From NCBI GenBank assembly GCA_947629815.1, contig CANRFG010000003.1, positions 7,148 to 71,147 on the forward strand: a stretch of 64,000 nucleotides of DNA. The letters are read 5' to 3'. Positions 3,322 through 56,091 of this stretch are shown one piece after another. The stretch comes from an uncultured Bacilli bacterium (GTDB lineage Bacteria; Bacillota_I; Bacilli_A; RF39; UBA660). Position 1 is the stretch's first letter, and every line of letters starts with the position of its first letter. A program made the translations under genes and the position numbers. Under the pieces are notes generated by a model. That model was given only the letters and a program-made list of their open reading frames with translations, was not told the origin of the DNA and ran no database searches.

Positions 3322-3738
3322 ATGGATTCTAATCTAAAAAGAAGTATAATGCTTGAGCATTATCAAAATCCTAAAAATAAAGGCTTAATTGAAGATGAAA
3401 CATATTTAAAAATAAATATGAACAATGAAAGTTGTATAGATGAAATAAATTTAATGGTAAAATTAGATGGAGATATTATAAAAGATATAAGATTTGATGG
3501 AGAAGCTTGTGCGATATGTACGAGTGCAACCTCAATAATGATAGATACATTAATAGGTAAAAGTAAAGAAGAAGCACAAAATATAATACAAAATTATTAT
3601 AATATGATAGAAGAGAAAGAATACGACCCAAATATTTTAGAGCAAGCAGTAGTATATAGTGATATATCAAAACAACCAAATAGAAAAAAATGTGCACTTT
3701 TATCATGGTGGGGAATTGAAAAAGCAACAAAAAAGTAA
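3322..3738 (+). CDS. sufU: SUF system Fe-S cluster assembly scaffold, NifU/SufU family
   Basis: Reads LEHYQNPKNKGLIEDE...LMVKLDGDIIKDIRFDGEACAICTSATSIMID...KKCALLSWW, which aligns with SufU. RBS AGGTG at 3311-3315 precedes the ATG at 3322. Confidence 0.8.
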   Translation: MDSNLKRSIMLEHYQNPKNKGLIEDETYLKINMNNESCIDEINLMVKLDGDIIKDIRFDGEACAICTSATSIMIDTLIGKSKEEAQNIIQNYYNMIEEKEYDPNILEQAVVYSDISKQPNRKKCALLSWWGIEKATKK

Positions 3739-3790: not shown

Positions 3791-5095
3791 ATGCAAAATT
3801 TAAATATAGAAAAAGTAGAACAAATATCAGATATAAAAAAAGAACCAATTTGGATGAAAAAGTTTAGAGTGAATGCATTTAAAACATTTGAAAAACTTGG
3901 AAATCCTAAGTTTGGACCAGAACTAAAAATTGATTTTGATATTATAAATTACTACAAAAAATTAGATGACGAAATACATAATAATTGGAATGATGTTCCA
4001 AAAGATATAAAAGATACATTTGATAAAATAGGACTTCCTGAAGCAGAAAAAAAATATTTATCAGGTGTACATGCCCAATATGAAAGTGAAGGCATATATA
4101 GTAATATGTTAAAAGAACTTGAAGAAAAAAATGTAATATTTTGTGATACTGATACAGCACTTAAAAAATATCCAAAATTATTTAAACAATATTTTAATAA
4201 TTTAGTTAAATATGATGAAAATAAATATACTGCTTTAAATTCAGCAGTATGGAGTGGAGGGACTTTTATTTATGTTCCACCACATACAACAATAGATAGA
4301 CCACTTCAAAGTTACTTTAGAATCAATTCTAAAAATATGGGACAATTTGAAAGAACAATTATAATAGTAGATGAATATAGTAGTCTACATTATATGGAAG
4401 GTTGTACCGCACCTACATATACATCAGATTCTTTACATGCTGCAGTAGTAGAAATATATGTTAAAAAAGGTGCGAAATGTAGATATACAACAATACAAAA
4501 TTGGTCTAATGATGTATATAATTTAGTAACGAAAAGAGCAATAGTAGAAGAAGATGGACTTATGGAGTGGATAGATGGTAATATTGGCTCTAAAATAAAT
4601 ATGAAATATCCAACTTGTATATTAAATGGAAATGGTGCGAAAGGAAACTGTATTTCAATTGCTGTTGCTACAAAAGGACAAATTCAAGATGCAGGTGCGA
4701 AAATGATACACTTATTTCCAAATACAACAAGTAATATAATATCAAAGTCTGTTGCTAGTAATGGTGGAGAAGCTACATATAGAGGAACAGTTAATATAAC
4801 AAAAAATGCTGTTAATTCCAAAAGCATAGTTAAATGTGATACTATTATTTTAGATGATAAGTCAAGAAGCGATACTATTCCTAAAAATAAAGTGGAAAAT
4901 GATAGTTCAACTCTAGAACATGAAGCAACAGTATCAAAAATAAGTAAAGAAAAACTATTTTATTTAATGAGTAGAGGAATAGAAGAAGAAAAAGCAAAAG
5001 AATTATTAATAATGGGATTTATAGATGAATTTAAAGAACAATTACCAATGGAATATGCTATAGAATTAAATGCATTATTAAAAAATTATTTTTAG
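3791..5095 (+). CDS. sufB: Fe-S cluster assembly protein SufB
   Basis: 434 aa with SufB-type conserved blocks: [53 protein letters not shown]. Confidence 0.8.
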
Positions 5096-53336: not shown

Positions 53337-54160
53337 AAACTTTAGATTATATAAAAAATATAATCAAAGTTATGATTTGGCCAATTCTATTTGGGATTGG
53401 TCAATTTTTTGTAATTTTGATTTTTACATTCTCATTTAATAATAATATTTACAATAATTTAGTACAAAATAATAGTAACTTATCAACAGAAGAAATAAAC
53501 GAAATGTTTAATTTATATACAAGTAGTGATGAATATAGTACATCACTTACAAATTATATTAATGATAATACATTATGGATAGTACTTATAGTAGCTGTAA
53601 TTTTTATTCCTTTACTTATTTTTAAATATAAAAAACAAAAAAAATTAAATTTTAAAATAAATAAAAATATTATATTTGTAATATTAGTAGGATTTTCAAT
53701 ATCTATCTTACTTAATTTAATAATAATTAATATTAATAAGTTATTTAATATAAATAATAATTTACTTGATTATAAATATTTAATACAGACAATAATTGCT
53801 TCTTGTTTACTTGGACCAATTATAGAAGAATTATTATTTAGAGGTGTTATGTTCAATAAAATTAAAACTTTTAATAATTTGAATGTTTCTATTTTATTAA
53901 CAACATTTATATTTGCCTTTTTTCATGATTCTATAACACAAATGATATATGCGTTTATAATAGGTTATATTTGTATAAAATTATATGTAGAATATGATAC
54001 ATTATTAGTTCCTATTATATTTCATATATCGTGTAATTTAGTTGTTCCTTTATTAAATAATTATCTAGTAAATCTAAATTATATTTATACTATATTAATA
54101 ATAATTGCTAGTTTAATAATTTTTATAATTTTTTACAAAAAAATGTATAAAAAAAATTAA
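53333..54160 (+). CDS. CPBP-family intramembrane metalloprotease (CAAX protease-like)
   Basis: Motifs GPIIEELLFRG (EExxxR) and FAFFH. A terminator hairpin aaactccacataatgtggagttt lies at 54202-54228. Confidence 0.7.
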   Translation: MKTLDYIKNIIKVMIWPILFGIGQFFVILIFTFSFNNNIYNNLVQNNSNLSTEEINEMFNLYTSSDEYSTSLTNYINDNTLWIVLIVAVIFIPLLIFKYKKQKKLNFKINKNIIFVILVGFSISILLNLIIININKLFNINNNLLDYKYLIQTIIASCLLGPIIEELLFRGVMFNKIKTFNNLNVSILLTTFIFAFFHDSITQMIYAFIIGYICIKLYVEYDTLLVPIIFHISCNLVVPLLNNYLVNLNYIYTILIIIASLIIFIIFYKKMYKKN

Positions 54161-54320
54161 TTTGTAAAATATAATAATGTGAATATCAATTATTCACGCC
54201 ACAAACTCCACATAATGTGGAGTTTATTTGTATTTAAATTGATATTTTTATTAAAATTACTTAATTTATTGCAAAAAATATTGAAAAAATTAAAAATATA
54301 TGGTAAATTATAGTTGCAAT

Positions 54321-54427
54321 GCTGATTGCATGGAGAAGATTTATCGATGAACCAATAAGTCAATCATGTTTTGTACATTTGAGCGAATAGCATTGAGAAG
54401 CGTAAGCGATGAACATATAAGTCTATT
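54321..54427 (+). repeat. about 2.5 direct repeats of a roughly 45-nt unit at 62-nt spacing (putative ToxI-like antitoxin RNA)
   Basis: Units at 54321-54365 and 54383-54427 share the core gagaagNNNNNNcgatgaacNNataagtcNat. A further copy lies downstream at 54931-54975. A promoter-like TTGAAA...TAAATT lies upstream, around 54282. Confidence 0.55.
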
Positions 54428-54430
54428 TTG

Positions 54431-54465
54431 AAAAGGGAAGTATATCTTCCCTTTTCATGTATTTT
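54431..54465 (+). terminator. rho-independent terminator between the repeat array and the toxin gene
   Basis: Perfect hairpin aaaagggaag-tata-cttccctttt followed by a T-rich tract. GGAGG RBS and the ATG at 54477 come next. Confidence 0.7.
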
Positions 54466-54476
54466 GGAGGTATGTT

Positions 54477-54893
54477 ATGAGTAGTTCAAAAAGGCTTTAT
54501 ATAAGTTATGATGAAGGAAGTGTTTATCATATTAACTTTGGTAGAACATTTCACCCTGAATTAAATAATAAACATTTGGGAATATTATTTAATATTAAAT
54601 CAAGTCAAAATATGATATTTTGTTTGCCATTAACAAGCCCAAAAGAAAAGCATTTTAAAACTAAAGAGGGTTTTAATAGTAGAAATCATTTTGATTTAAA
54701 ATATCCACATTTATACTATATAAAAGAAACGGATTCAATAGTTTTGATGGAGCAGTTTAGAACAATTTCTAAAAGAAGAATTGAATCTCAGTATAAAGAT
54801 TCAATAAGTAATCAAAAGGTTGTAATATCAGAAATAGAAATGAAAAAACTAAAAGACGCGTTTAATAAATTTTATAAGACTATTATAAAATAG
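54477..54893 (+). CDS. ToxN/AbiQ-like type III toxin (endoribonuclease, Kid/MazF-like fold)
   Basis: The block LGILFNIKSSQNMIFCLPLTSPKEKH, with T53-S54-P55-K56, matches my recollection of the ToxN active-site block (..YLAPLTSPKKWH, T52/S53/K55). The later block SIVLMEQFRTISKRRI is MazF/Kid-like. Confidence 0.6.
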   Translation: MSSSKRLYISYDEGSVYHINFGRTFHPELNNKHLGILFNIKSSQNMIFCLPLTSPKEKHFKTKEGFNSRNHFDLKYPHLYYIKETDSIVLMEQFRTISKRRIESQYKDSISNQKVVISEIEMKKLKDAFNKFYKTIIK

Positions 54894-55125
54894 TAATAAA
54901 TATATAAAAAATGAATAAAATATAAATAAATGCGAATAGCGTAGAGAAGATTTATCGATGAACTTATAAGTCTATTCGTATACCATTATATATGGTATGA
55001 GCTAGTCATAAGACTAGCTTTTAAAGTATATATAATATGTTCTTAGAAATACTAAATAAAAAAATGTATTATTCTATTCTTTATTTTTGTAATCTAATAT
55101 GCTAAAATAATCATAGGGTGAGAAT

Positions 55126-56091
55126 ATGAATCTAGAAGACTTAGAAATAAAAAAAGAACTAAAAATAATATTTATGGGAACTCCAGATTTTGCAGTTCCA
55201 ATATTACAAGCATTAATAGATAACTACAAAGTGCGTGCTATTGTAACTCAACCAGATAGAGAAGTAGGAAGAAATGCAGAAGTACGATTTAGCCCAATAA
55301 AAAAAGTAGGAATGGATAATACTATATTAGTTTTACAACCTGAAAAAATAAAAGATGAAATAGAAACAATAAAAAATTTAGAACCTGATTTAATAATAAC
55401 TTGTGCTTATGGTCAGATATTACCACAAGAACTACTTGATATACCTAAAATAGCTTGTATAAATGTACATGCATCTCTTCTTCCAAAATTAAGAGGAGGC
55501 GCTCCAATACATAGAGCAATTATGAATGGATATAAAACAACAGGAATAACAATAATGTACATGAACTCTAAAATGGATGAAGGAGATATAATAAGTAGTG
55601 AAGAAATAGAAATAGAGTATGATGATACTGCTTCAACTTTACATGATAAATTAAGTAAATTAGGCGCAAAATTATTAATAGAAACATTACCTTCAGTAAT
55701 AAATGGAACAAATGATAGAATAAAACAAGATAGTACACTTGCTACATATGCATTTGTAATAAAAAGAGAAGACGAAAAAATAGATTTTAGTAAAACAAAA
55801 AGAGAAATATATAATAAAGTTAGAGGATTAAATTCTTGGCCAGGAGCATATGCAATGTGTGATTCAAAAATATTAAAAATATGGGAATGTTATGAAACAG
55901 ATAATTTTTTCCCCGAATTATTAGATGGACAAATTACAAAGGTATATGAAGATGGAATAGGTGTTAAGGTTAGTAATGGGGAAATAGTTTTAACTTTAGT
56001 TCAACCAGAAGGAAAAGGTAAAATGAAAGCTGTTGATTTTGCTAGAGGTTTAGCTAATAAAGGAAATGTTGAAGGGAAAATATTAAGTTAA
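55126..56091 (+). CDS. fmt: methionyl-tRNA formyltransferase
   Basis: N-terminus KIIFMGTPDFAVPIL, plus the blocks NVHASLLPKLRGGAPI and a C-terminal domain. Confidence 0.9.
   Translation: MNLEDLEIKKELKIIFMGTPDFAVPILQALIDNYKVRAIVTQPDREVGRNAEVRFSPIKKVGMDNTILVLQPEKIKDEIETIKNLEPDLIITCAYGQILPQELLDIPKIACINVHASLLPKLRGGAPIHRAIMNGYKTTGITIMYMNSKMDEGDIISSEEIEIEYDDTASTLHDKLSKLGAKLLIETLPSVINGTNDRIKQDSTLATYAFVIKREDEKIDFSKTKREIYNKVRGLNSWPGAYAMCDSKILKIWECYETDNFFPELLDGQITKVYEDGIGVKVSNGEIVLTLVQPEGKGKMKAVDFARGLANKGNVEGKILS

Follow-up and report, generated by a model that had tools for sequence, protein, structure and literature searches.

A MazF/PemK-fold putative toxin gene behind paired hairpin RNA units: a probable type III-like toxin-antitoxin family in uncultured gut bacteria and their phages

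How might a putative toxin be held in check when no antitoxin gene accompanies it? The question is raised by a short cassette at 54281-55022 of the 64,000-nt stretch of contig CANRFG010000003.1 from an uncultured Bacilli bacterium (the whole of this stretch is referred to as the window), in which a 138-aa open reading frame (ORF) follows two direct repeats and a terminator. [quoted passage not shown] In our judgement the cassette is likely to be a type III-like TA system built on a MazF/PemK-fold endoribonuclease. It is better described as a separate family working like type III than as a member of ToxN/AbiQ or CptIN, because it falls below the ToxN and CptIN cut-offs, lies nearest to MazF/PemK and carries a hairpin rather than a pseudoknot RNA. 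The evidence comprises the anatomy of the locus and its conservation, a covarying RNA structure, the exclusive linkage of this RNA to the toxin gene, the fold and motifs of the protein, and the lack of any gene for a protein antitoxin. We infer the function from these features, and the cassette probably represents a new type III TA family of uncultured gut bacteria and their phages.

All elements of the cassette lie on the + strand. A sigma-70-type promoter called by consensus match (54281-54309; -35 TTGAAA, 17-nt spacer, TG-extended -10 TAAATT) places the predicted transcript start a few bases 5′ of RNA unit 1 (54319-54369; covariance-model score 57.4 bits, E 1.8e-14), which has a closing stem, P1, of UGAUUG/CAAUCA, inner helices and the conserved loops GNGAAG and GANGAAC. 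A single-stranded linker (54370-54380), carrying the candidate processing site UACAU at 54374-54378, leads to unit 2 (54381-54431; 58.1 bits, E 1.2e-14), with P1 GAAUAG/CUAUUU and a P2 hairpin GC-GUAA-GC. An intrinsic terminator or attenuator follows (54429-54465), formed by a perfect 12-bp stem (54429-54457) with a 5-nt loop and a T-rich tail, TGTATTTTGG; the region holds 2 terminator-like sites against 0.2 expected from shuffled sequence. The ribosome-binding site (RBS) GGAGG (54466-54470), read from the sequence, stands 6 nt 5′ of the ATG of the putative toxin gene (54477-54893), whose product is a putative MazF/PemK-fold endoribonuclease with the motifs PLTSPKEKHF and TDSxxLxEQxRTxSxxR. 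A third RNA unit (54930-54980; 59.8 bits, E 3.2e-15) lies 36 nt past the stop codon in the 3′ untranslated region (UTR), pairing a P1 like that of unit 2 with a P2 like that of unit 1. Two closing hairpins (54980-55022), the first of 7 bp (54980-54998) and the second of 8-9 bp followed by TTTT (55000-55019), are probably the terminator of the toxin transcript.

The order of promoter, repeats, terminator, RBS and ORF was thus found at essentially the coordinates claimed in the earlier note, as were the T-run terminator with its perfect hairpin and the repeat copy downstream of the toxin gene followed by two hairpins. Its description of the array as about 2.5 upstream copies of a 45-nt repeat at 62-nt spacing was right in the spacing, but the copies number two and the functional RNA unit measures 51-53 nt. 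At the DNA level, 47-nt copies lie at 54318-54364, 54380-54426 and 54929-54975, with 70-83% identity and with the first two spaced 62 nt apart. A covariance model built from related loci found exactly three copies in the whole window (57-60 bits), the next match scoring 14.7 bits. Tandem Repeats Finder (TRF), run on 54100-55100, reported only AT-rich micro-repeats and not the 62-nt array, because the copies are just ~70% alike.

This anatomy agrees with the operational definition of a type III locus, in which the toxin is preceded by a terminator that is itself preceded by tandem repeats (Blower et al. 2012, PMC3401426). A 12-bp stem and T-run stand before the toxin gene, and two units 62 nt apart form the tandem array, though it is missed by TRF, the tool used in PMC3401426. 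A promoter upstream of the repeats, which that definition prefers without strictly requiring, is predicted from its consensus match. The adjacent, co-transcribed protein antitoxin gene of type II MazEF/PemIK loci is absent. The earlier note had seen no protein antitoxin gene upstream; no plausible ORF is present in the window between the upstream terminator (54203-54225) and the toxin gene, and across the related loci there is no conserved flanking ORF family, the sole recurrent frames being short, inconsistent, located over the repeats and present in at most 14 loci. A protein antitoxin encoded by an adjacent gene was ruled out on these grounds. An antisense (type I) mechanism was also ruled out, since no unit is complementary to the toxin mRNA over 12 nt or more.

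The cassette is not peculiar to this genome. Both strands of 51 genomic and 2 viral loci encoding homologues were scanned (266 kb in total), the sources being gut metagenome-assembled genomes labelled Bacilli, Tenericutes, Erysipelotrichaceae and similar. Nearly all loci share one leader, in which a promoter is followed by units 1 and 2, separated by a linker of 13-18 nt, and then by a terminator and an RBS, with TTGAC(T/A)...TATAAT/TAAATT promoters at the same distance from unit 1 as in the window. The covariance model returned 112 matches in these 53 loci, every one of them on the toxin strand and adjoining the toxin gene. Exactly two upstream units are found in 47 of 51 assessable loci, at a spacing of 57-63 nt in 46 of the 47, and a hairpin with a T-run stands 5′ of the toxin start in all 49 loci having an upstream unit. 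The exceptions to the two-unit rule are L010, with one hybrid unit, L011, with one unit, and the toxin fragments L036 and L051. The type III architecture proposed in the earlier note therefore stands, on some 50 loci, covariation and linkage by strand and gene; membership of ToxN/AbiQ or CptIN does not, both scores lying below the curated cut-offs. Decayed copies also occur: an interrupted toxin ORF (L040:2998-3183) retains all three RNA units, the third at the equivalent position, and the fragments L036:389-679 and L051:1108-1269 have lost their upstream units. Separately, in many loci of the short-toxin clades (L050:2788-2808, approximately, L043, L045, L016, L008 and others) the -10 box lies within an inverted repeat, GTGTTATAATATGTAACAC, that might serve as an operator or form a hairpin at the 5′ end; the window promoter lacks it.

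The third unit is present in 16 loci besides the window, and in 15 of the 16 it lies 11-38 nt past the stop codon. In seven loci this gap is only 11-19 nt, leaving no space for a promoter outside the ORF, so unit 3 most likely belongs to the toxin mRNA. Its position also bears on the possibility that the units are a tandem riboswitch, or a leader sensing a ligand or a tRNA, in front of an orphan MazF/PemK toxin of type II that has its protein antitoxin encoded elsewhere. A pair of structured elements in tandem ahead of a terminator does resemble a tandem riboswitch, and public annotation names homologues as type II PemK/MazF toxins. However, a unit downstream of the ORF is not in a riboswitch position, no neighbouring ORF is conserved, and the RNA is tied to a single protein family and also exists in stand-alone copies. 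Rfam 15, with ToxI-type antitoxins and the pemK motif among its families, contained no relevant match to 53500-55600 (E up to 10) or to 13 related loci (E up to 1). We give such a leader only a very slight chance of being correct.

We then asked what the units look like as RNA. The alignment (A3) comprised 66 non-redundant units aligned with MAFFT and was not fitted to any structure. RNAalifold returned 11 base pairs from it, and compensatory changes were seen at 10. When a 13-pair structure was scored on the same alignment, 89.3% of cells were paired compared to 29-38% in controls with slid partners, double-change cells numbered 185 compared to 5-32, and compensatory changes occurred in 12 of the 13 pairs. 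The covariation score of 0.566 exceeded the controls (at most 0.115) and was equalled by no shuffle. The top mutual-information column pairs were the proposed base pairs together with one non-canonical pair, A-G changing to C-U, between columns 19 and 39 (54337 and 54349 in unit 1), which lengthens P2. The unit is thus an extended hairpin, in which the closing stem P1, with a bulged U, is followed by a short inner helix, P1b, an internal loop and P2. The internal loop is GA-rich and asymmetric, with G17 A18 / A40 G42 A44 nearly invariant; the P2 hairpin is variable and is often closed by GNRA or UUCG loops. P1 differs consistently between the units across loci, being UUGAUUG/CAAUCA in unit 1 and GAAUAG/CUAUUC in unit 2. 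A classical K-turn was considered for the GA-rich loop, which looks similar, but is unsupported, since one unit in three has G at position 43.

The protein places the system nearest to MazF and PemK. The window protein scores 23.3 bits against Pfam PF02452 (PemK_toxin), marginally above the gathering threshold of 23.1, and the same profile matches 26 of 27 family members (best E 3.5e-9). Its 68 homologues are mostly unnamed, some being labelled type II PemK/MazF toxin and one a Caudoviricetes endoribonuclease, and the family is small and isolated, since of 1.84 billion cluster representatives only 19 score E<=1e-10. Proteins with a PemK domain come next (E 1e-7 to 1e-3); nine of ten tested passed the PF02452 cut-off, and none of the same ten matched NCBIfam CptIN or Pfam ToxN. 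By sequence and by fold alike, the closest relatives are MazF/PemK proteins, and sequence searches of the PDB with the protein, the family profile or a 38-aa motif peptide yielded MazF-type chains or nothing. P0087, a distant and apparently frameshifted homologue, is flanked by weak units (L054:1398-1448 and 1917-1965), and P0093, a more distant PemK-like gene of a Mollicute reading TGA as Trp (L055:1340-1500), has a structured leader and terminator with no recognisable unit. Neither P0093 nor P0144, another distant PemK-like relative, has matching RNA units. Solitary PemK-like genes preceded by RNA leaders may have a wider distribution.

The motifs announced in the earlier note were borne out. 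LPLTSPKEKH is present in the ORF with T53, S54 and K56, and the ToxN motif cited there, APLTSPKKWH with T52/S53/K55, was verified in PDB 2xd0; the T-S-x-K catalytic loop, which follows the central strand, is almost identical in the two, reading PLTSPKKWH in ToxN and PLTSPKEKH here. The later Kid/MazF-like block corresponds to residues 81-106, where the conserved segment ETDSIVLMEQFRTISKRRI of the window protein aligns with the ERDSVILLEQIRTIDKQRL block of MazF/EndoA. Across 51 near-full-length copies there is no change at the active-site type residues E28, H33, T53, P55, K56, K58, R69, D86, S87, Q93 and R101, nor at F60, Y81 and S98, while S54 is kept in 50, a pattern that fits an active enzyme under selection. 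Judged by its fold and its motifs, the protein appears to be an endoribonuclease of the ToxN/Kid/MazF fold, as expected of a type III toxin. The active site of CptN has been described as a Ser-Ser/Thr-Arg triad with Asp81, Ser85 and Tyr104, and set against this published description its residues have plausible counterparts in the window protein.

In every related locus listed, the linker carries N-CAU-Y 3-7 nt 5′ of unit 2, which takes the form UACAU in the clade of the window. UACAU is reportedly the sequence recognised by the MazF proteins of B. subtilis and S. aureus, and on sequence grounds the linker motif is a candidate processing site. Conserved single-stranded linkers with CAU, and the strict linkage of RNA and protein, would also be expected of an RNA-maturation module, in which the functional product would be the RNA itself (a small regulatory or decoy RNA, for instance) and the protein, rather than a growth-inhibiting toxin, would be a nuclease dedicated to processing the units, much like Cas6 with CRISPR repeats. 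Protein-less phage units, three of which stand ahead of tRNA genes or tRNA-like sequence, could be read in the same way. Yet the fold and motifs match toxins of the MazF/ToxN type, the attenuator would hold protein expression low relative to the RNA, as in TA systems, and the loci with decayed toxin genes, like those placed in prophages or islands, are in keeping with selfish TA modules. We therefore consider a maturation module improbable.

Further copies of the RNA came from viral contigs, which were scanned with a degenerate DNA pattern and then filtered with the covariance model. Of 93 stretches, 11 were confirmed, the rest being mostly chance matches. Two of the 11 unit-bearing stretches are the known toxin-bearing contigs and nine are toxin-less; a profile search of six-frame ORFs (E<=1), covering the fetched stretch only, revealed no toxin homologue in any of these nine. 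Their units score 30-60 bits and lie at L089:2839-2958, L123:3867-3926, L064:5162-5221 and L115:13671-13722 (strand unmarked) and, on the minus strand, at L071:179-229, L144:8541-8600, L149:3033-3092, L126:4803-4892 and L107:2106-2157. At least four of the nine are preceded by a predicted promoter. L089 has the layout of a stand-alone gene, with a predicted promoter (10/12 match, TG), a unit of 60.5 bits at 2885-2936 and a predicted terminator; the unit of L126 occupies 4803-4851. In L126, L107 and L115, TTGACA...TATAAT lies a few bases 5′ of the unit, and P1 is GC-rich and fully compensated; the promoter of L126 is a 12/12 match with a TG extension in the scan, whereas those of L107 and L115 were read from the sequence. 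The promoter predicted by the scan in L071 is less convincing than those of L089 and L126. Both L126 and L107 have, ~140 nt past the unit, at least ten tRNA genes in an array; in L115, where no tRNA gene was called, the contig stretch ends soon after the unit.

Toxin-less, stand-alone units with predicted promoters in phage contigs argue that the RNA acts in trans, and purely cis-acting explanations are correspondingly disfavoured. Chief among these is an autoregulatory leader, in which the RNase would bind or cleave the units as cis-acting sites and so control its own expression (by attenuation or mRNA decay) without being neutralised, the protein perhaps being a regulated RNase and not a toxin that the RNA restrains. 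Cis control predicts units in the 5′ leader immediately before the terminator and in the 3′ UTR, which is where they are found, and the weak folding of single units on their own is also compatible with it. Against this, an RNA for which a promoter of its own is predicted (as is a terminator in L089) is separate from any toxin mRNA; the exact number of two units and the distinct identities of units 1 and 2 are conserved; and the known relatives of such a layout are antitoxins. We regard autoregulation as unlikely, if slightly less so than a maturation module, and retain a type III-like TA system as the preferred reading. By analogy, the toxin-less phage units may be antitoxin mimics. Pectobacterium phage PhiTE reportedly carries such a mimic, pseudo-ToxI, and the phage contigs here, known from sequence alone, show a likeness to it in bearing toxin-less units.

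The genomic context of the toxin-bearing loci is likewise mobile in part. A phage-type HNH endonuclease gene lies downstream of the cassette in six loci (for example L052:3537-4046(-) and L005:3483-3998(-)), and an endolysin-like M23 peptidase gene is nearby in five, four of them shared with the HNH set, and upstream in four (examples are L002:1822-2718 and L024:1726-2472). Several loci are placed in prophages by this position between M23 peptidase and HNH endonuclease genes, which is the typical position of a prophage 'moron'. Some loci adjoin tRNA genes. In L010, L038 and L049, a cassette of 0.74-0.91 kb lies between direct repeats, at L010:2107-2206 and 2849-2940 (most of a tRNA-Thr gene), L038:2588-2638 and 3499-3549 (the 3′ end of a tRNA-Ala gene), and L049:2616-2733 and 3447-3564, suggesting either a minimal mobile cassette or what is left of an element once integrated at a tRNA gene. 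The prophage loci and the toxin-less phage copies of the RNA are the sole hint of a role in phage defence. In the window itself, the cassette lies between a CPBP/Rce1-like gene and fmt, and it is a separate transcription unit because the upstream gene ends in its own terminator.

How does the cassette compare to characterized systems? In the literature consulted, to July 2025, type III TA systems are assigned to three families only, toxIN, cptIN and tenpIN (PMC12283969), beside which a few unrelated RNA-antitoxin systems are named. ToxIN/AbiQ (Pectobacterium ToxN, PDB 2XD0/2XDD; PF13958) has a locus order identical to that of the window cassette. CptIN (Eubacterium rectale, PDB 4RMO; NF047359) is the closest type III relative by fold, and the earlier note had favoured it for the small repeat number and unit length. 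This likeness does not hold: the repeats of CptIN are near-identical and 40-48 nt long, whereas here the period is 57-63 nt and the two units are consistently non-identical (~70% in the window); its RNA is an H-type pseudoknot with an A-rich loop, compared to a nested hairpin by covariation here; and the third unit in the 3′ UTR is a feature of the window family that differs from CptIN. The repeats of tenpIN are few, long and sometimes non-identical (39-57 nt, ~2 copies), as in the window family (PMC3401426). TenpN has been characterised as ToxN-like, its helix being kinked and its core measuring ~150 residues, a description that sets the window family apart, and no chain described as TenpN is among the fold matches listed. 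Type II MazF/PemK/EndoA systems (PF02452; S. aureus 4MZM, B. subtilis 4MDX) have a MazE/PemI-type antitoxin gene, which the window family lacks, and, unlike theirs, the window gene has structured RNA repeats and an attenuator in front of it. The concept behind the pemK RNA motif (Rfam RF02913), a structured RNA reportedly found upstream of pemK genes in Firmicutes, is similar, in that a conserved RNA structure stands before an apparently solitary PemK-type toxin gene; its covariance model found no match in the window region (E up to 10) or in 13 related loci (E up to 1).

Several points weigh against the type III assignment. The profile check against ToxN/AbiQ suggested by the earlier note gave 19.5 bits with PF13958 (ToxN_toxin; E 1.2e-3, alignment over residues 29-137 of the window protein), below the gathering threshold of 25, with 7 of 27 family members matching at E<0.01 (best E 1.3e-5). 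NCBIfam NF047359 (CptIN) scored 18.9 bits, under its equivalog cut-off of 90, and PADLOC returned no match for the window protein. All solved type III antitoxins are pseudoknots (PMC4627078). The earlier note had likewise looked to pseudoknot-forming repeats, but in place of an H-type pseudoknot, covariation gives the nested helices P1, P1b and P2 with one non-canonical pair. No crossing pairs appear in the top 30 mutual-information column pairs, a test to which pairing between invariant bases is invisible. The folding stability of single units did not differ significantly from shuffled sequence (z -1.8 to +1.75), so that the claim for an RNA structure is one made from covariation alone; since single units are thermodynamically unremarkable, their fold may need protein or tertiary contacts. 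One locus, L010, combines an apparently intact toxin with just one hybrid unit, which could be an assembly collapse. CptIN, moreover, conferred no phage resistance when tested in E. coli (PMC3401426). Finally, the toxicity of the protein, its binding and neutralisation by the RNA, the processing site, the instability of the RNA and the trigger are parts of the model that we infer.

On the type III-like reading, a single promoter would yield a short, abundant transcript containing two different structured RNA units of ~52 nt, and most transcription would stop at the intrinsic terminator acting as an attenuator. Read-through would produce the toxin mRNA, in the clade of the window with a third unit in its 3′ UTR, and each toxin message would thereby bring along one antitoxin unit. 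The toxin probably cuts the precursor within the single-stranded linkers at N-CAU-Y, and the released hairpin units would bind the toxin through their conserved GA-rich internal loops, keeping it inactive. Should synthesis of the unstable RNA cease, upon phage infection or loss of the element, free toxin would cleave cellular RNA. A bolder version, which we advance tentatively and think somewhat unlikely as a whole, is that of a fourth classical type III family, in which a MazF-type RNase, of a family that proteins otherwise neutralise, is inhibited by two distinct RNAs of hairpin and not pseudoknot type, a third antitoxin copy resides in the 3′ UTR of the toxin mRNA, and stand-alone mimic RNAs, some of them heading tRNA arrays, are what phages use against the system.

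If the reading is correct, hairpin RNAs that neutralise a toxin of the MazF/PemK fold would link MazF of type II to ToxN/CptN of type III, and would widen the range of RNA folds known to inhibit an enzyme. Databases may assign the wrong type to PemK/MazF toxins that look solitary; homologues of the window protein carry a type II label. Type III surveys based on TRF would overlook the window family, because TRF misses its 62-nt array, and similar systems with diverged two-copy arrays that escape this tool have possibly been widely missed. Should the toxin-less phage units prove to be mimics, they would add a second natural example of counter-defence against TA systems by RNA, and they offer a direct handle on the question of phage defence.

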